From the IMG/VR virus record IMGVR_UViG_3300014886_000120: DNA of 33,706 nucleotides. One strand, given 5' to 3'. This stretch comes from a virus (Duplodnaviria; Heunggongvirae; Uroviricota; Caudoviricetes). This document shows positions 5,169 to 21,764 of the stretch, piece by piece (the stretch's first letter is position 1; the number at the start of each line of letters is the position of its first letter). Under the pieces are notes generated by a model that saw nothing but the letters and a program-made list of their open reading frames with translations, was not told the origin of the DNA and made no database searches. The translations under genes and the position numbers were made by a program.

Positions 5169-6467
5169 TTATTGAACAGTAACCTCTCCATATGTCTTAA
5201 CCTCCGGGTTTGAGATATCTAAAGACGGAAATGTCTTACTTGGATAACCAGAAACTATATCCAATGAATATTCATATGGATAGACCTCATAGTACATAGA
5301 GTCAGACATGATAGCTGAAATTGATAGGCTAACCCCAAACTTAGAAAGTAAATCTTGAAGAGTCATAGATTCAGTTAAACCTTTCAGTATTAAAAGAAGT
5401 CGTTTGGATATGGCAAGCTCCAGAACATATTTTGTCAGTGACTTGAACAGTTCAGATATATATGATGTAGCTTGGAAGCTACTTCTTAAGGAGATTCTAT
5501 CTGCTATTGAGATACCTTCTATACCTGCCTTTACTTTTAGAACCAGCCTTTTAGTTATACCGAGAAATACCTTACTACATACCTGCAATTTGCTTATAAT
5601 ATCCGAGACGGTAGATCCTACATACAGAGACATGCTTTCTAGAATACTTTCAGTAATCGACAGAGCTTCTGGGATTCCGAGCTTGAGTAATAACCTTCTA
5701 TTTATGGTAGCTACCTCAAGAAGTATCTGTCTAAAGAGTGTTGAGATAACATCCAGACTTGTACTATAGACTTTTAAGATTGTATGATACAGCAAATGCT
5801 CGTTTATCGTCATGGTCTCCTTTAGGTTTAATATTAGAGCTAGACGTTTACTGAGGGAAGCTAGCTCTGACAAGAAATCTTTGATCCTAAGGTAGTCTTC
5901 AACTAATGAGCTTGCTACCATTGAAATTCTATTTCTAAGGTATTCAGACACAAGGAGAGTCTCTACCCTGGATAGTTTAAAGAGGAGTCTCTTGGTGATT
6001 GTTCTTAGCTCTATACTGTATAGACTCTGAAAGATCTTGTCTATTACGGAAGAGGCAACAGTTCCAACATGAATTGAAATGAGAGTACTTTCAACCATTG
6101 AGAGAGCCTCAAATACCGTAACCTTCAGTTTAAGTGTACTGGTTAATAGTACACTGGCAAGAGCATATAAGCTGATCTTGATGGCATCCAGGATGTTTGC
6201 TATAGCTCCAGAAAGTAACAACCTGATCCTTGTAAACTCAGTAATTGTCAAGCTTTCACTTAGTATAATCTTCAGCTTAAGTAATGAACCTATTGAGAAA
6301 CTGATAACTGCTAGTGTTTGTAATTTTAAATAATCTACCACAGACACAAGCAAGTTTTTGAGTAGCAAGTTAAGGCTTGTAGTTTCAGCCATACTGATGG
6401 ACTCTAGAAATCTCTTGATGATAACACGAAGTCTTCTAATTATCCTGTAAGGTATTAGGATCGGCAT
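5169..6467 (-). CDS. Repeat protein with about eight 48-50-aa repeats; putative fibre shaft
   Basis: Repeats begin xxES/ET/EA-(L/I/M)-(S/T), have a central D and end in (K)R-L-L-L-K; GGAG RBS upstream. Confidence 0.65.
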   Translation of the reverse strand: MPILIPYRIIRRLRVIIKRFLESISMAETTSLNLLLKNLLVSVVDYLKLQTLAVISFSIGSLLKLKIILSESLTITEFTRIRLLLSGAIANILDAIKISLYALASVLLTSTLKLKVTVFEALSMVESTLISIHVGTVASSVIDKIFQSLYSIELRTITKRLLFKLSRVETLLVSEYLRNRISMVASSLVEDYLRIKDFLSELASLSKRLALILNLKETMTINEHLLYHTILKVYSTSLDVISTLFRQILLEVATINRRLLLKLGIPEALSITESILESMSLYVGSTVSDIISKLQVCSKVFLGITKRLVLKVKAGIEGISIADRISLRSSFQATSYISELFKSLTKYVLELAISKRLLLILKGLTESMTLQDLLSKFGVSLSISAIMSDSMYYEVYPYEYSLDIVSGYPSKTFPSLDISNPEVKTYGEVTVQ

Positions 6468-12210: not shown

Positions 12211-13173
12211 CTAATAGGCTAGAGCATTGAGTGAGCTTGAAGACACTTCCACTATCTGGATGGCATTAGCTGAAGAACTTGACCTAGCTGTGAATGGAAG
12301 CTCTATCTCTATAGGTTCAAGCCCAGATATCTCGTCAGGTAGCTCACCAAAGGTAACATTGTTCAGAGTGATAGTTATAGTGGAACCAGTCTTAGCCAAT
12401 GTTATCTGTATAGTATTGTCTTGTCTTCCCTTAACTGTACTAGCTATGGTATTGAACTGTCCCCTCATAGTGATTCTACCTTCAACTTCTAAGGCTCCTT
12501 CTCTCAGTTCCACCGGATAGTATGTACCAGCTCCAGTTGAATACATAGCCTCAAGGTTATTGTTAGTTGACACCACTATTCTTCCTACCAGTGTACATGG
12601 TATCGTACCACTGGAGTTAGTTATCTGGAGAGATGAATGATGGAATGCAAAGGCTTCCTGGCTAAAGTCTATACTAGGCTTAGGTAGGTTTCCAGTAACA
12701 GGTAGCACTGCCATATTCTTACCAGCAAAGTTTAGCTCTAGTCTCACATCTCCAGTATCCTCTATGGTTAGCTCAGCTGTATCAACCTTCATTCCGTAGT
12801 ATTCCAAGCTAACAGTGTTCCCATTCTCATCTGGAGCTAAGCCTCTGTAGATGGTCATTGATGGAACCTTTGAAGCTACTGCATAAGTAGATTCATATGG
12901 GGAAGTAGTACTGGCTGTAGAGACGGTACCAAGAATGTACTCAAATATTTTAGCTGATACAAGTTCCTGAACCCATCTTCCTACTACTCCTTCCTCTAAC
13001 CATACAACCTTCCTGAAGTCTCTGGAGCCTCCTATTACATCTTCTTCAGACTTGTTCTCAGTGGTAGTAGCTGACCATTCCAGCAAGTAGTTTGGGAAAG
13101 TATCTGGAGTGATAGATTGACCCCATACGTTCTCTTTCTTGAAGAGTATCCATCTATCCTGATAATATGACAT
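12211..13173 (-). CDS. Major tail (tube) protein, 320 aa
   Basis: First gene of the tail operon; GGAGGT RBS; motifs KEN.WG, PSMTIYRG, Y.GMKVD.AEL, L.LNFAG, NNNLE, G.LEVEGRIT, IELPFTA typical of siphovirus tube proteins. Confidence 0.85.
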   Translation of the reverse strand: MSYYQDRWILFKKENVWGQSITPDTFPNYLLEWSATTTENKSEEDVIGGSRDFRKVVWLEEGVVGRWVQELVSAKIFEYILGTVSTASTTSPYESTYAVASKVPSMTIYRGLAPDENGNTVSLEYYGMKVDTAELTIEDTGDVRLELNFAGKNMAVLPVTGNLPKPSIDFSQEAFAFHHSSLQITNSSGTIPCTLVGRIVVSTNNNLEAMYSTGAGTYYPVELREGALEVEGRITMRGQFNTIASTVKGRQDNTIQITLAKTGSTITITLNNVTFGELPDEISGLEPIEIELPFTARSSSSANAIQIVEVSSSSLNALAY

Positions 13174-13464: not shown

Positions 13465-13502
13465 GACATTAAACACTTAAAGTATTAAAGGAGGTAAAGA
13501 AC

Positions 13503-16500
13503 ATTCTAATCAAGTTTCTAGGTACAAGAGGATACGTAGATACTAGCTCCAGGACACACAAGAATAGGGCTTCCATAATAGTCACATCCATGGATACTTC
13601 ACTTCTAATAGACTTTGGAGACCTTTATTCTCCAGAACAGTTCCCGGAAGTTAGTAATCTTCTGATAACCCATAAACATCCAGACCATATTGGTGGAATA
13701 TTGAAAGATGAGTTCAAGGAAAAGAAGGAACTGTATGATCATGTCAGTCTTTACCTATCTAATCAAGCTTATGTCAAGGAGCTGCCGTCATTCCTTAAAG
13801 TTACTAAGTTCAAGAGAAGAGACAGCTTTAAGATAGGAAGCTTCAATATCACAAGTGTTCCAGTCTTACATAGTGTCAAAGCTCCAAACGTAGCTTTGTT
13901 CATAAGTGATAACAAACACAAGATATGCTATTGTTCAGATGTAGTAAGCATCAGGAAAGCTGATAGAGACAAGTATCTGAAGGGATGTAGTGTCTTTATA
14001 GGGGACCTAAGTACTCACAAGAAGGGTGGTTTAATAAGGAAAGCTAAACATGATGAAGGTACCTTGATAGGACATGCAGATATTAGAACTCAGCTAGCCT
14101 GGTGTAGGGATGCTGGGGTTCCAGTCTGTATCTTCACTCATCTTGGGACTGATCCTATTGAGCTAGGAGATGGAAAGCTTAAAGATTTATTATCCACATT
14201 AGAAAATAAATATGGGGTAAAGATAATTATAGCTAAAGATGGAGACAAGTATGACATAGAGGATTTGGTGAATATGTCAGAAAGAGAGTTATTAAGGGAA
14301 GAGCTTCAGCTTAAACCAGAAGATGTAGAACCTATAACCCCTAAGGCTTTTCCAAAGACCCCAGAGTATGGATTAATCCTTGTAGCTCCACATCCAGAAC
14401 TGATATGGAAGGGAGAAAAGACAGCTATTGTAAAGTCTGTTAAGCTAAAGTCACATATCAATGAGCCTCTATATCTCTTGGATATAAAGAACAAGCTGTG
14501 CTATGGTATCATTCAGCTCAAGGAACCAGTGGAAATATCCAGAGAAGATTTCATCAAGAGATATGATGAGCATAGAGTCAGTGAAGAAGAAAGAAAGAGA
14601 TGGGCTAAGAAAGAACCTAGCTGGAACAAGTTCCCCTTATACCTATACGAGTTCTTCTTTACCAAGTTTGAAGCTCCAAAGCCCATAAGAGTGAAGGTCA
14701 AGGGACCACAGATATTCATCAAAGCTTCCAATATCGAGTTCTTATCTCCTAAGCTTATGACGATGGAAGAGCTAGAGTATTTCCATAGCTATTATCATTC
14801 TTGTGGAGAGCTACTTTCACCATGTTGCAAAGAGCATTATGTCATAGCTTTGGAAATGTTGAATAGAGGTATTCCCCATCTATCTAGAACTCCATGTGAT
14901 AGACCGATAGAGCTTATCACCAAGGAAACTGCAGAATACATCAGAAACATCAAGGATGTAGAAGACCGTCCATTAGGAGATGACTTCAGGATAGTATTAG
15001 CTTGGTACTCGTCCATTAGAAGAGGAAAGAAGCTGAAACGAAAGGATGGTACACCTATAACTATAGAAGATTGTAGAAAGCTTGGTCTGGCTATAGTTAA
15101 GGAAATGATAAGGAGACATAAAGAGTACGAGAAGAAAGGTATCACCAAGTTTACATTCAACAAGCCGGAAACATACAAGAAATATGCCAGGGAACTGTTT
15201 GAGTGGATAATCAAGCAGATAGGGAAGGACAACATACCATGGAAAGAAGAGAAAGAACTGAACTATATCTCTCAGATATACTCTGTACTACCTGCTGGTA
15301 TGAGGATAGAAGACATAGATCCTCCTTACGTTATAGGACTGACAGATGAAGAGCTTATCAAGCTATGGGAGTTCCTGGTTGACAAGGCAAATGAAAGCGC
15401 TAGTTCACCAGAAACGATACCAGAGAACATCCATGATGCTGGAGTATTTGTAGGGATTGAGCTCTACAAGAGAGGCTTGTGGGATGATGTAAAAGGTGAC
15501 AATATCCTTACTAAAGCTGTAGAGCTTGAGGTTTCTGAATATCCAACTCCTAAGGGCTTGTTCTTTTCTGAAGCTGAAGAATCAGAAGCTATCTATCCTG
15601 AGCCAGAGGGAGAATACATCAAGCTGGAAGATGTACTGAAAGCTTTACCTCCTCATTTGATAGTTAAGGGAGAACCTTATGGGGCCTATCTTACTGGAAG
15701 AATAGTGAATGAGGGAAGGATACCAAAAGATCATGACATAGATTTACTGTTTAGACAGCTGCCTGATCCTAGGATAGTTGAAGCTGTAAAAAACCTGAAG
15801 CCTGAATGGTTAGCTAGGAGGATACACCCAGTCTTTGATCCATTTGGTCCATACATAGGATACAGCCTAAACGTCTATAGATATGGCTTCTTTAAGCTAC
15901 CTGACAATCTTATGATCAGAGACTTTGGTCCATACAGGTTTGAGAAGCTAGCTAAAGAAATCAAAGTAGGAAAGCCTATGATAGGTGTAAAACCACGTAG
16001 TGGCTTTGGTAAGTTTGAATTCTGGGATCCAGAGGAAATGTACAGGGAGTGGGCATCAAAATACTTAGAGGATGGGATATTCGTACAAGAGAAAGTAGAT
16101 GGAAGACGTATGCAGCTGCATGTAGACAAGGCAAAGAAGCTGGTTAAGATAATCACAGAGGACAGACAGAGAGACAGAGCTAGCCAGTTTCCAAACATAG
16201 TAAAAGAAATCATGGATAAGCTCAATTGTGAGAGCTGCATACTTGATGGAGAGATGGTAGCTTTTGAGATACCTCCTAACAAGGTGGTTAAGTCTGCCAA
16301 GCTCAAGAGACAGATGGATCTTATGGAAAGAGAAGACACTGCAGCTATAACTGTCGGAAAGGTTCCTCCAGAGCTTGAGGACAGAATAGTGTATGTTTTC
16401 TACGATATTATGTACCTGGATGGTAAGCCTGTAGTAGACTTGCCATATTCTGAAAGGTTCAAGCTGTTAAAGAAAGTGGTTCCCAGAGATGCTCGTTATC

Positions 16501-18317
16501 TGGACTTGGTAAGAAGTATATTTACAGATACACCTGGAGAATTCTTAAGAGCTGTGGAAAAGATGAGAAGAGCTCCTGGTTCAGAGGGTGTAGTAGCCAA
16601 AGCAGCTACCATGAAGTACCCAGTAAAGTATAAGGGAGAAAACAGAAGTGACGAGATGTGCATCACTGGAGGAAGCTATATTCTTACAGAGGAAGGTTTC
16701 AAGAAGGTATGTAACCTTAAAGTTGGAGACCTAGTATTTGCAAAAGATGGTAAATTACATAGAGTGCTAAGAATATTGAAGCGTTTGGTTGGTAGTGAAG
16801 AGAAGCTTTATGATGTCAGAAGCAAAAACCCAGGAGGTATAAAAGTGAGGTTAACAGGAGATCACAGAGTTATGACTAGAGAGGGATGGGAAAGAGCTGA
16901 AAATATTAACAATAAGCTGGGAGTCCCTATAAGAATTAGCCTTCCAGAAGAACCATACCCCAAGCGTCTTGAGCTAGAGTGGCATGGATATAAGAAAATT
17001 ATTAAGTGTACAGATGATTTCTGGAAATTTATTGGTTTTTGGTTAGCTGAGGGAAGCTTAGGAAATAATAGATGCAAGAGCTATAAGAGAGGAGAACTAA
17101 CATTCTCTCAAAAAGATCCAAAAGTCTTTGAATACTATGCTGACCTAGCTGATAAGCTTTTAGGTGTTAAAGGGAAGAGATATCAGTATAACGGAATCAA
17201 TATCTATATAGTATGGGATAAGCCTTTCTGTGATTGGCTATCTAGACATTTCTTAGATAGAAATGATGATAAGACTATACCCTGGTTTATAGGAAGCTTG
17301 CCAGAATCCTCGTTTAATGCATTATGGAATGGCTATAGAGATGGAGATAGATGTCATAAGTTCTCAGATGATATAATTACTTCAGATCCATCCTTAGCTG
17401 GTAGAATGTATGCTATCTTGCTTCATAGAAACGAGACAGTCAGTGTGGTATGGAGAAAGACTAGGAAGAGAAATTCCTTTATTATTAGAAGGTTAAAACG
17501 GCCAATAACTTCCTATAGAATAGAAGCTAAAAGAGTCTATACTGATAAGAAAGACTGGGTATATGATATTGAAGTGGAAGGAGAGGAGTCTTTCTTATCT
17601 GGCAATATAGTACTACATAATTGTAAGCTCAAGAACCTTAAAGAGATAGATGTCATGGTATGGGATGTAATAGAAAAGAAACGTAAAGAGACTGGAGAAC
17701 CCCTAGGGAGCTACATGTATATCTCAGTATATCTTATCCCAGAAGAGAAGGTTGATGACTTTCCTAAGAACAAGGTGGTAGAGTACAAGGGAAAACACTA
17801 TGCCATCATAGGTAGAACTTATGCTACTAACGTCAAGTGTAAGAGAGGTGACATCATAACAGTCATGCCTATCAGGATAAGGAGATATGAGAGTAAAGAA
17901 GGCAAGTATTTCTATACCTGGATGTTCCCTTACTTCAAAGAAAAGAGATCAGACAAAAAAGACCCAGACACACTTACTACTGTAGAGAGAATAGCTAAGC
18001 TTGGTACAAGACCAGCCAAGCTTACTGAGACACTTGAAGAGACTATTGTGGTTAAGCTGCCTATCTGTGAGTTCAGTGAATACCCAGAGATATGTCCCCT
18101 AAAGAAGATATTTGGTAAGCCAAGGTACCATGAACTTACTATCTTGAAGATTGAACACCTTAGGTTCCCGGTAGCTTGCCCATTAGCTAATATCAGAAGA
18201 TGTGTATTCCTAAAAGATTATTACTATGGGTTTAAAACTTACAAGAGAGGAAAGCTATCTAATCTGGATGGTGAATCTAACATTATAGTAGTAGGAGATG
18301 AAGAGTATGAAGATTAG
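13503..18317 (+). CDS. Multidomain protein (~1604 aa): MBL-fold hydrolase, ASCH-like domain, His/helical domains, minimal nucleotidyltransferase, ATP-dependent DNA ligase (adenylation + OB) with intein, Cys-rich tail
   Basis: MBL HKHPDH at 13671-13688 plus downstream H, D, H, H motifs; ASCH-like GLILVAPHPELIWKGEKTAIVKS; NTase LTGRIVNEG...DIDLL; ligase motifs EKVDGRR, LDGEM, FYDIMY, EGVVAK, (M)CKLK and FPYFKEKRSDK. Start placed at ATT 13503 (see findings); ORF track start is ATG 13590. Confidence 0.85.
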   Translation: MLIKFLGTRGYVDTSSRTHKNRASIIVTSMDTSLLIDFGDLYSPEQFPEVSNLLITHKHPDHIGGILKDEFKEKKELYDHVSLYLSNQAYVKELPSFLKVTKFKRRDSFKIGSFNITSVPVLHSVKAPNVALFISDNKHKICYCSDVVSIRKADRDKYLKGCSVFIGDLSTHKKGGLIRKAKHDEGTLIGHADIRTQLAWCRDAGVPVCIFTHLGTDPIELGDGKLKDLLSTLENKYGVKIIIAKDGDKYDIEDLVNMSERELLREELQLKPEDVEPITPKAFPKTPEYGLILVAPHPELIWKGEKTAIVKSVKLKSHINEPLYLLDIKNKLCYGIIQLKEPVEISREDFIKRYDEHRVSEEERKRWAKKEPSWNKFPLYLYEFFFTKFEAPKPIRVKVKGPQIFIKASNIEFLSPKLMTMEELEYFHSYYHSCGELLSPCCKEHYVIALEMLNRGIPHLSRTPCDRPIELITKETAEYIRNIKDVEDRPLGDDFRIVLAWYSSIRRGKKLKRKDGTPITIEDCRKLGLAIVKEMIRRHKEYEKKGITKFTFNKPETYKKYARELFEWIIKQIGKDNIPWKEEKELNYISQIYSVLPAGMRIEDIDPPYVIGLTDEELIKLWEFLVDKANESASSPETIPENIHDAGVFVGIELYKRGLWDDVKGDNILTKAVELEVSEYPTPKGLFFSEAEESEAIYPEPEGEYIKLEDVLKALPPHLIVKGEPYGAYLTGRIVNEGRIPKDHDIDLLFRQLPDPRIVEAVKNLKPEWLARRIHPVFDPFGPYIGYSLNVYRYGFFKLPDNLMIRDFGPYRFEKLAKEIKVGKPMIGVKPRSGFGKFEFWDPEEMYREWASKYLEDGIFVQEKVDGRRMQLHVDKAKKLVKIITEDRQRDRASQFPNIVKEIMDKLNCESCILDGEMVAFEIPPNKVVKSAKLKRQMDLMEREDTAAITVGKVPPELEDRIVYVFYDIMYLDGKPVVDLPYSERFKLLKKVVPRDARYLDLVRSIFTDTPGEFLRAVEKMRRAPGSEGVVAKAATMKYPVKYKGENRSDEMCITGGSYILTEEGFKKVCNLKVGDLVFAKDGKLHRVLRILKRLVGSEEKLYDVRSKNPGGIKVRLTGDHRVMTREGWERAENINNKLGVPIRISLPEEPYPKRLELEWHGYKKIIKCTDDFWKFIGFWLAEGSLGNNRCKSYKRGELTFSQKDPKVFEYYADLADKLLGVKGKRYQYNGINIYIVWDKPFCDWLSRHFLDRNDDKTIPWFIGSLPESSFNALWNGYRDGDRCHKFSDDIITSDPSLAGRMYAILLHRNETVSVVWRKTRKRNSFIIRRLKRPITSYRIEAKRVYTDKKDWVYDIEVEGEESFLSGNIVLHNCKLKNLKEIDVMVWDVIEKKRKETGEPLGSYMYISVYLIPEEKVDDFPKNKVVEYKGKHYAIIGRTYATNVKCKRGDIITVMPIRIRRYESKEGKYFYTWMFPYFKEKRSDKKDPDTLTTVERIAKLGTRPAKLTETLEETIVVKLPICEFSEYPEICPLKKIFGKPRYHELTILKIEHLRFPVACPLANIRRCVFLKDYYYGFKTYKRGKLSNLDGESNIIVVGDEEYED
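16659..17621 (+). mobile_element. Intein with LAGLIDADG endonuclease (321 aa) in ligase motif V
   Basis: N-terminus CITGGSYILT, C-terminus VYDIEVEG...VLHN followed by +1 Cys; LAGLIDADG-like FIGFWLAEG and LWNGYRDGD; splicing restores RSDEM-CKLK. Confidence 0.92.
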
Positions 18318-21300
18318 AAAATGGATGTTAGATGAGCTAGCTGTTCCTGAATATATAGCTAGGGAACTGACAGCTAAGTATATGGAATATGTAAAAGAAC
18401 CCAAACCATTTGTAATGCAAGCTCACTATATTGGAGATTCTCAACATGTAGACTTTAGATTTAAAGTAAATGGCTTTTTAGAAGGCTGGTCAGTACATCC
18501 CAGAGAGAGAGTGCTAGTCTGGTCCTCGAAAGGCATAGAAGCTCCAACGCTTGAGGAACTATTTTCAAGATTCAAAAATATAGAAAAGATAAATGGCTAT
18601 GAGATGGTTAGACCATCTTACTATAAAGCTCTAGCTTTCAAGGGAGGTATAGGATACTGGGTTCCAATTACAGCAATAGTCAGACATAGATATAAAGGAA
18701 AGATCTTAGAGCTTGATCAAAAGTGGGGTGTAATAAAAGTCACTCCAAACCACTCTGTCTATTCTCAGGAGTGTACTCCAGCTAAGGCTTCATCCAACCC
18801 TGAGATCCTTGGTATCAGAAACATCTCTTATTCTCCAAGAGGAGACTCTATCAAGCTCCATGCCCGAGGTCTATTTCAGAATGGTGATAAAGTACAAGCA
18901 AGAAGAAGCTTTATACCTTTACCAATTGAGCTGAGAGGTAAGCAGCTAAAAGCTTTCTTATATTTCCTTGGAGCTTTTATTGCAGAGGGATGTGTTCATA
19001 AGAAAACTGATGGAAGCTATCTAGTTCAAATTGGTAATAATAATCTTGACTTCCTTAAGAGAGTTCAACAGTCTATCTCTGATTCTCTAGGGATTACATC
19101 CTGGATATCAGGACCAGACTCAAATGGAACGTATACTCTAGGAATGTCCAATAAAACCCTCTATTACTACTTGAAGAACAATGTTGGAGCAAGTTCTCTA
19201 GAGAAACGAATTCCTCCAGACGTTCTAGCTCTAAAGTAGGACTGTCTAAAGGTACTATGGAAGTCTCTTTGGGAGGGAGATGGGTGTGATAAATGGAAGT
19301 CATTTTCAACCAGCTCGGAGGAGCTAGCTATTCAAGTATGTTTCCTGCTTGGATTGTTTGGTAGTAACTTCACTGTGAAAAAAAGTGTAGATCCCAAGAG
19401 TAGGCATTATATCTACAATATTCTTTTAGTGGACCATTATCATCTAAACAAAGCAGAACGTAAAATTGGAGAGATAGATTTTGAAGGGTATGTATATGAC
19501 CTCTCACTTGAGCCTCTTCATAACTTTGCCTGTGGTCTTGGCTTGGTAGTTTGCCATAATAGTATTGTCGGAGGTTCCAGAGATGATCCCCATACTCCTC
19601 AAAAGTTCCTAGAGAATATAGGAAAAGGGTTTAGAGCTGAGACTAAGTGTGTTAATCCATTCTGTAATGAATGGAAGTATGAGCTAATAAAGGTAGAGAA
19701 TGGCATAGTTTATGTTAGATGGAAGACAGAGGAAGAACTATCCAGTCTTACTATGGAAGAGCTAGCTCGCCAGCCTTTACAGTGGCTAAAAGTAGAAGGT
19801 AAAGTAGAACCTGGAGAGGTAGGTGCTGGAGAAGAAGCTCCAGGTGAGTTTAAGATTCTTACTAAAGGCTTACTAATAACTGGAGCTCAAAAGCCATACT
19901 TCCATGAATATTTCATTAAAGACAACAAGTACTTCAAAGACTGGACCAGAATAGTCCTAAGAGCCATTAAGGTTAAGAAGATAGACCCTAAGACTAAGAA
20001 GCCTATACCTGGAGAATATGAACGTATGTGGAGATTTATGATACCAAAAGATCAGAAGCCTTATGCATTAAGCAAAAGAGCTATAGAGCATAAATGGAAG
20101 CCTCCTCAAAACATCAAGTATCCATTCCCGAAAGAATGGGCTAAGAAGAACTGGCCTAAAGAGTTTGAGAGATGGGAGCTTTACCTTAGAGGTGAACTAT
20201 CTGAACTTACCACTGTCAGGTTTACATTGGGTCTAGCTAGCTGGATGGGGCCTAGGGCTAAGACTGGAAGACAAATGCCTCAGATGAGATGGTTCCTCTT
20301 CCTGGATGACAAGGGTAAAGGAAAAGTAAGGACATTCCTGTTGGATGGATATCCACTAAAGGATGAGATAATGGCAGCTTATGAATATCCAAGAACTTCC
20401 AGGAAATGGCTGGACTATCAAGGTGAGACTGAACCTAACACACCCCCTGTTAACCCAAATAAAGAGCTGGTTGGCCAGTATGTCATAATAGACAGTGGAA
20501 CCGTAAGCTACACTACAAGAACTGAAGATGGAGAAGAAGTGATAGAGCTAGACTTTAAGGGTAAACGTCTGAAAGGGAAATATCAGCTGAAGCAAGAAGA
20601 GAAGGGAGCTGATGTATACATATTTGAAAAGCTATCGGCCCAGGTCAGCATGGCCCAGGGAGTGTTTGTTCTTGACAAGCACTACTGGCCTGAAACGTCC
20701 AAGGAATATCACCTGGACCTTAGATTCAAGCTTCCAGAATGGGACTACCTAAAGGAGTTTAACATATGGGAAGCTAAAGGTGTGGACGATTTAAAGAAGC
20801 TTGAGGTTCCATACCCAGCTAGACTCAAGGAATGCAGTGACCTTGAATGGTTGAAGGTAAAGAAAACTGGTACCAGAATGAAAGCTTATGGTAAATGGTC
20901 CATAGCTGAGACTATAGATCATGGAAGCATAGAGATAATAGAAGATAGTCCTAGATTCATGTCCTTTAACATCAATGGAAAGAAGCTTAAGGGATACTAC
21001 ATAGCTAGGAAAGCAGATGGTCTATGGCAGTTCATGAAATCCAAGCTACCTAAACCTCTGTCTATATTTGAGAAGATGTATGAGATATTTGGTAAAGAAG
21101 GAGATCCAAGAGAAGGTAAACCATATGAACCATTCAAGATAGAGCAGAAGAGAGGATGGAACTACTTCATAGTCCATATTTATGACCTAAGAAAGTTTAC
21201 CAGAGTAGAACCAAGTGAAAAGACCAAGCTATACCTTCCTGAGCTAGACATACCTGAAGGAGTAGACATAGGGATAGGCCTTTATCCTCGTCCAGGAAAG

Positions 21301-21432
21301 ATACATGGAGCTAGAGTAGCCTACATAATATTTGACTCATCCAAGTGGACCCATGAACAAGCTATAAGATTTATTAGAGACAAGAAGCTTGATACATGGG
21401 AAGGAGAACAAATCAGGAGTAAGAGGAAATAG
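18298..21432 (+). CDS. Protein with three tandem LigD 3'-phosphoesterase (PE)-like domains plus a C-terminal domain; contains an intein and one in-frame TAG at 19237-19239 (joins ORF-track entries 18298-19239 and 19354-21432)
   Basis: Both ORFs share one frame (offset 1056 nt = 352 codons). PE motifs FVMQAH..HVDFR..GW|S and FVLDKH..HLDLR; LKVEGKVEPGEVGAG; IDSGT/IDHGS; GKRLKGKY/GKKLKGYY. Confidence 0.75.
18490..19560 (+). mobile_element. Intein with LAGLIDADG endonuclease (357 codons), interrupted by an in-frame TAG
   Basis: N-terminus SVHPRERVLV; block-B-like IKVTPNHSVY; FLGAFIAEG and LWKSLWEGDG; C-terminus VYDLSLEP.HNF...VCHN followed by +1 Ser. Confidence 0.88.
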
Positions 21433-21434
21433 AG

Positions 21435-21764
21435 TTGAATGCTATAAGCTGGATTAAACAAGTAAAGAAGTACATGAAGAAAATAGAGGAAGCTTCACCT
21501 AAGGACAGGTTAGGTTATATGTCAGAGATAGACAGATGTAACAAAGCTATATTTGCCTCTACTCAAGGATGGGAATACTGGCTATCCAATCCTACCATCA
21601 TAGACCAGTTCACTAAGGAAGAGCTTGAAGAGATGCTTGATGAGTTTAGGGAGCTAGCTCTACAGTTCCTAAGGAACGACATTAAATGGACAGAGCATTT
21701 ACTGGGCAAGGCTCAGATGTCAAAGCTAAAGTCTAGCTCTAGCTCCAGAAGATACATCACATAA
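21435..21764 (+). CDS. DUF2153-like conserved archaeal protein
   Basis: Pattern DRL.Y..EI..C..AI..S..GW..WL.NP.I...F.KEELEE......RELA..FL..DIK.T recognised from memory as DUF2153. Confidence 0.7.
   Translation: MNAISWIKQVKKYMKKIEEASPKDRLGYMSEIDRCNKAIFASTQGWEYWLSNPTIIDQFTKEELEEMLDEFRELALQFLRNDIKWTEHLLGKAQMSKLKSSSSSRRYIT

Follow-up and report, generated by a model that had tools for sequence, protein, structure and literature searches.

Cyanobacterial DnaE carries a naturally split intein. Further examples, gp41-1, NrdJ-1 and IMPDH-1, were reportedly described by Dassa et al. in 2009 as 'fractured genes' of phage and metagenomic origin. These inteins are broken within the endonuclease region that separates the two Hint lobes, and the halves are two established genes with their own starts, conserved across relatives, with the endonuclease either absent or free-standing. 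According to one model, split inteins originate when a stop codon arises in a decaying endonuclease domain, and the nucleotidyltransferase of phage Zeenon has been presented as a naturally split case (bioRxiv 10.1101/2025.01.02.630785). Among solved intein structures, PI-PkoII (2cw7), TliVMA and PhoVMA (7qsu, 7qss, 7qst) and PI-PfuI (1dq3) have a Hint fold of two lobes into which a double-LAGLIDADG domain is inserted. An in-frame amber codon inside an otherwise intact gene is also seen in pyrrolysine archaea and in TAG-to-Gln phages (NCBI table 15), and genomes that recode amber either avoid TAG as a stop or combine many in-frame TAGs with a suppressor tRNA.

Here we describe a viral intein that has the same fold as these solved structures, and whose reading frame is interrupted by one TAG codon in the endonuclease region, between the Hint lobes. 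The window, i.e. the whole stretch of 33,706 nucleotides that we analysed, forms the end of a tailed-virus contig of ~116 kb; its gene layout is dense and motifs resembling a Shine-Dalgarno (SD) sequence precede most of its genes. The features needed for the argument are given below, where sister contigs are near-identical contigs from other assemblies.

12211-13173, minus strand: tail tube protein gene (PF18906)
13590-18317: gene for a polyprotein of metallo-beta-lactamase (MBL) and ATP-dependent DNA ligase, which contains an intein of its own
18307-21432, plus strand: LigD 3'-phosphoesterase-like gene with intein; a 1041-aa ORF from ATG 18307 in the sister contigs
18307-18489, plus strand: N-extein, 61 aa, ending in ...FLEGW, placed by alignment with intein-free homologues
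18490-19560, plus strand: class-1 intein, 357 aa, with Ser1 (SVHPRERV); intein-free homologues read GWSIVG unbroken
18742-18753, plus strand: block B, TPNH
18937-18993, plus strand: first LAGLIDADG helix (..LGAFIAEG), with the acidic Glu166 present
19237-19239, plus strand: in-frame TAG, gene codon 314 and intein residue 250; AAG (Lys) in the sister contigs
19237-19287, plus strand: second LAGLIDADG helix (..LWEGDG), with Asp264 present
19561-21432, plus strand: C-extein, 623 aa, starting with SIVGG, with its own stop TAG 21430-21432

The host protein of the intein shows weak similarity to LigD 3'-phosphoesterase (PF13298), and its intein-free homologues are 620–720 aa long. An alternative start of the gene is ATG 18298. 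All columns that are invariant among ten homologues are present in the window gene. The ligase and phosphoesterase-like genes are separate in the window, overlapping by 11–20 nt in different frames, while in the relatives P0015, P0020, P0021 and P0029 (1500–1700 aa) an ATP-dependent ligase and a triple phosphoesterase-like protein form one fused ORF; the start MKI..MLDEL of the phosphoesterase-like protein is kept in stand-alone homologues. The next gene (21435-21764) encodes DUF2153 (PF09921), according to precomputed Pfam matches on sister loci, and L010, a relative, has its DUF2153 gene upstream and not downstream of the phosphoesterase-like gene. Within the LigD-phosphoesterase-like family, a hot spot for inteins, at least five insertion sites are seen (a slash marks the junction): IGKS/, GW/S (the site in the window), ARQP/C, GTQK/C and WMG/C. 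The inteins at every site are of the LAGLIDADG type and occur in different uncultured viruses (homologues P0005, P0013, P0019, P0023 and L004:362-3607).

The intein itself has the hallmarks of a class-1 LAGLIDADG element. Its Ser1 nucleophile is accompanied by a block B in which Thr85 and His88 are invariant across 29 intein family members, by block F (GYVYDL..HNF) and by block G (..VVCHN), which is followed by the +1 Ser (SIVGG). Pfam detects LAGLIDADG_3 before and again after the stop, and Intein_splicing in the part that follows it. An AlphaFold (AF2) model of the read-through intein, built with 29 family members, has a mean pLDDT of 92.4 and a pTM of 0.91, contains both LAGLIDADG helices and places the stop at residue 250, the start of the second one (residues 250–264). 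Foldseek comparison of this model with PI-PkoII, TliVMA, PhoVMA and PI-PfuI gave E values of 4e-22 to 2e-16 and TM scores of 0.62–0.78, and PI-PkoII was also matched by sequence. The window intein differs from these solved inteins in having Ser1 instead of Cys1, in its host, a viral LigD-phosphoesterase-like protein with the insertion at GW/S, and in its ORF, which is broken by the TAG at codon 314 in the window contig and is unbroken in the sister contigs L011 and L012. With the intein alone as query, the closest intein among 1.84 billion representatives was at most 41 % identical, and relatives were mostly found within dTDP-glucose dehydratase-like proteins. Judged from its sequence, the element is an endonuclease-bearing class-1 intein of a known kind, in a new host protein and at a new insertion site. 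Three short matches to the intein family (P0100, P0118 and P0174) were considered as natural split forms and rejected; they end mid-domain and look like contig-end truncations.

Across the stop, the frame reads ...IPPDVLALK up to the TAG and DCLKVLWKSLWEGDG... after it, and then stays open for 730 codons until TAG 21430-21432. At 40 % GC, stops are expected at a frequency of ~0.06 per codon, and because an open stretch of 730 codons is beyond chance, what follows the stop codes for protein now or did so until very recently. Frame, Pfam matches and domain boundaries thus bear out the initial annotation, made from the letters alone, which had proposed that coding runs on through LAGLIDADG motif 2 to the HN/S junction, and its estimate that about 620 aa of downstream extein are cut off agrees with the 623 aa of the C-extein. 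The same annotation had allowed that further disabling mutations might reveal a pseudogene, but there are none: differences from the intact sister protein occur only at codons 314 and 316. Near-invariant intein columns are all present, before as well as after the stop, and over the 30 residues that follow it the resemblance to the family is as strong as elsewhere in the intein. With one stop only, and with the conserved intein and extein columns present, the gene does not look like a decayed pseudogene. Bypass of the stop by frameshifting was rejected, as the other two frames around it close within a few codons and the homology stays in frame 0.

The 90 % protein cluster of the downstream fragment P0003 has four members: P0191 (310 aa) and P0003 (685 aa), which are the two fragments of the window gene, a 122-aa piece lying outside the stop site, and P0192, an uninterrupted protein of 1041 aa encoded on contigs of 109,689, 127,585 and 128,201 bp from other assemblies (MGnify, JGI, Logan, ENA). 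Of its 1041 residues, P0192 shares 1040 with the read-through product; it has Lys in place of the TAG, and Tyr in place of the Cys encoded by the window. An uninterrupted wild-type allele of the gene therefore exists. At the nucleotide level, the sister contigs L011 (Logan SRR14699971) and L012 (ENA ERZ650341, coverage 31.7) are mutually identical and, together with L013, a further stretch of the Logan contig of L011, cover positions 1-31432 of the window. Over this span the window and its sisters are 99.99 % identical, with three base differences only:

15455, plus strand: G in the window (GGG), A in the sisters (GGA); synonymous Gly codon in the ligase gene
19237, plus strand: T in the window (TAG), A in the sisters (AAG); stop versus Lys
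19244, plus strand: G in the window (TGT), A in the sisters (TAT); Cys versus Tyr, codon 316

Among 34 intein family members, Lys and Pro are the most frequent residues in the stop column (eight each); at codon 316 Tyr is the commonest (12 of 34) and Cys occurs in none. Since Lys and Tyr are modal in the family at these two columns, it is the window allele that is derived. Two of the three differences lie 7 nt apart, within 8 nt of each other, an arrangement with P = 0.0018 in a simulation, which points to T19237 and G19244 as one clustered event. These comparisons bear out the option listed first in the initial annotation, that AAG, GAG or CAG had turned into TAG by a single-base error or a recent mutation: the same codon is AAG in L011 and L012, within an unbroken 1041-aa protein. 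The linked second substitution at 19244 had not been part of that annotation.

The same virus has been assembled publicly at least four times (109.7, 115.9, 127.6 and 128.2 kb), from samples that are perhaps not independent, and the size differences among the four contigs suggest different ends or circular permutation. Also, in the stretch 19234-19252, T19237 and G19244 create Watson-Crick partners (A19249 and C19242, respectively) within a short quasi-palindrome that has T19243 at its centre. A clustered mutation of the template-switch type might be read from this, and it may be coincidence; we do not claim such an event, as intervening mismatches are left uncorrected and the arms are only 3–6 nt long.

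Another reading is that the TAG is translated, whether by a suppressor tRNA, the host's pyrrolysine machinery or leaky termination, and that the full-length precursor is made. The perfectly continuing frame, with all intein and extein motifs intact, fits such decoding, but the remaining evidence makes it extremely unlikely. TAG is a normal stop in this window, as the initial annotation had already remarked: the other 21 genes end in TAG (eight), TAA (eight) and TGA (five), and both the phosphoesterase-like gene and the tail tube gene end in TAG where their homologues end. If TAG is read as sense, only the phosphoesterase-like gene is fused, while others lengthen by a few codons; stop-codon usage and this reading-as-sense test in the window likewise speak against genome-wide recoding of TAG, TGA or TAA. 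ARAGORN found no tRNA in the window, and none was found in G001, a complete related virus (107.9 kb, with terminal repeats). There is no readthrough-stimulating RNA structure around the stop (z = -0.54 versus shuffles), and the plain AAG of the sister allele shows that the codon is no conserved recoding site. In contrast to amber-recoding genomes, the window thus uses TAG for 38 % of its stops, has one in-frame TAG and has no detected tRNA, leaving the suggestion of readthrough or pyrrolysine incorporation in the initial annotation unsupported.

With an AAG allele in hand, the reading that we favour is that the TAG is a very recent, contig-private change from AAG to TAG in a real but defective haplotype, with no special decoding; from the sequence comparisons we would give this about an even chance. 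In this scenario, the AAG (Lys) codon that starts the second LAGLIDADG helix would have become TAG together with the linked TAT-to-TGT change (Tyr to Cys) 7 nt downstream, most likely through a single clustered event in one haplotype within the virus population. The product of the TAG allele would be a dead-end fragment of 310–313 aa, consisting of the N-extein and the front part of the intein, and cis-splicing and the 623-aa C-extein would be lost, so that the phosphoesterase-like gene would newly have lost its function in this haplotype. Such recency would explain why everything else is intact. Counting against this reading, many related viruses conserve the gene, so that a nonsense allele is expected to be selected against and rare.

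The main competitor to a real haplotype is that the sampled virus also carries AAG and TAT, and that both bases are consensus errors of one assembly, a reading that we consider possible though less probable. It would account for sister assemblies that are identical over 31.4 kb except for both of these bases and one synonymous site, and for a stop in a conserved gene, which is biologically implausible. The close spacing of the two changes also resembles a local error patch and in this respect counts against a real haplotype. On the other hand, the third difference, at 15455, is a synonymous third-position transition that looks like a genuine SNP and is typical of a distinct haplotype, and the window has no frameshift and no other broken gene. 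In addition, a 116-kb contig would need decent coverage, and two neighbouring majority-base errors would then be unlikely in a short-read consensus. On balance we lean towards the real haplotype over the consensus error, and infer that the change is biological and that the fragment it leaves is non-functional.

A comparable loss is seen in the nearest intein-free relative (P0038; L010:836-2760, from the sample series of L001), which is 61–66 % identical. An out-of-frame deletion of ~25 codons, between ..FMKSKLP and ..VPYKDF, leaves its phosphoesterase-like gene in pieces of 545 and 114 aa, and the last domain could be re-initiated at GTG 2416. Because the L010 gene is broken in this way, loss of the phosphoesterase-like gene does occur in nature. 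Comparison with L010 also led us to reject co-conversion from recent homing of the intein, as the flanking DNA is 78 % identical and identity is lowest exactly at the insertion site.

The third option of the initial annotation was a nascent split intein in which translation restarts at TTG 19354 and the two halves trans-splice. More generally, the TAG haplotype might be viable, with a putative C-half made from ATT 19330, TTG 19354 or GTG 19375 that would associate with the N-half and restore the phosphoesterase-like protein by trans-splicing. The break does fall within the endonuclease region between the two Hint lobes, as in natural split inteins. The candidate restarts are as follows:

19317-19332, plus strand: GGAGGAG followed, after a spacer of 6 nt, by in-frame ATT 19330; the sole restart candidate backed by an SD motif, which may well be chance
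19354-19377, plus strand: TTG 19354, the first canonical in-frame start after the stop, and GTG 19375, also canonical and in frame, both with no SD motif

In the gene calls, P0003 (685 aa) begins at GTG 19375. That no good ribosome-binding site precedes TTG 19354 had been stated from the outset, and indeed no Shine-Dalgarno motif is found there; the motif upstream of ATT 19330, in turn, had been missed. Its sequence and spacing are the same as at the bona fide genes 5169-6467 and 31363.

The neighbouring ligase gene offers a precedent for such a start. Homology to P0036 extends upstream of its ATG 13590, with residues 6–36 of P0036 aligned, and this upstream segment holds the first beta-strand of the MBL fold (..ILIKFLGTRGY..). 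There is no ATG, GTG or TTG between the stop at 13470 and ATG 13590, and a GGAGGT lies 7 nt before ATT 13503. The ligase polyprotein therefore appears to start at ATT 13503 and not at ATG 13590, although gene calling on the sister contigs likewise chose ATG 13590 (1575 aa). Since the ligase gene appears to start in this way, ATT initiation is plausible in this virus.

Several observations nevertheless weigh against a functional restart in the intein. An SD-backed in-frame ATG, GTG, TTG or ATT occurs eight times in 10,683 internal codons, corresponding to a chance of ~0.08 within the 107 usable codons, and the SD motif at 19317 simply spells two consecutive Glu codons in a segment conserved across the family. 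With a restart at 19330 the second LAGLIDADG helix would be lost, and both fragments would carry a truncated half of the endonuclease. In natural split inteins, by comparison, the split is conserved, whereas the window combines one stop and an otherwise intact endonuclease with no canonical restart carrying a ribosome-binding site and with an intact parent allele; the nearest allele is unsplit. Because the TAG allele is private and only ~0.01 % diverged from this parent, selection had no time to act on it.

Relatives, too, provide no split form. The full-length search and the metagenome scan returned homologues that lack an intein, fusions with the ligase, and forms in which uninterrupted inteins occupy four other sites. 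The eight loci of the metagenome scan had no intein at GW/S, and the IMG/VR scan yielded one 53 % relative without an intein at the window insertion site. No close copy was matched among GenBank phages by blastn, and the exact 685-aa fragment had no entry in the gene-position index. Among 5.8 billion proteins there was no homologue of the N-fragment; the 313-aa query found only the N-extein of the intein-free P0038. Taken together, these results make a nascent split intein very improbable. The proposed restart at TTG 19354 is supported neither by relatives nor by a ribosome-binding site, and the SD motif with ATT 19330 keeps the idea barely alive. The specific version in which the C-half is re-initiated at ATT 19330 behind GGAGGAG and the halves trans-splice, with the unsplit, 99.99 % identical parent still circulating, we likewise regard as hardly credible.

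Our analysis indicates that no exotic mechanism is needed at this locus: an unremarkable nonsense change private to the contig, or else an error, suffices, and the intein is intact in all other respects. As such, the finding matters mainly as a negative result, and gene annotation should follow the intact allele, which encodes a 1041-aa precursor predicted to yield a protein of ~684 aa after splicing, with the predicted junction peptide FLEGWSIVGGSR. If the TAG/TGT haplotype is real and abundant, the allele pair would be a natural experiment on the origin of split inteins, and if the trans-splicing reading were true, a split intein would be seen here at its birth, with the unsplit parent allele alongside.
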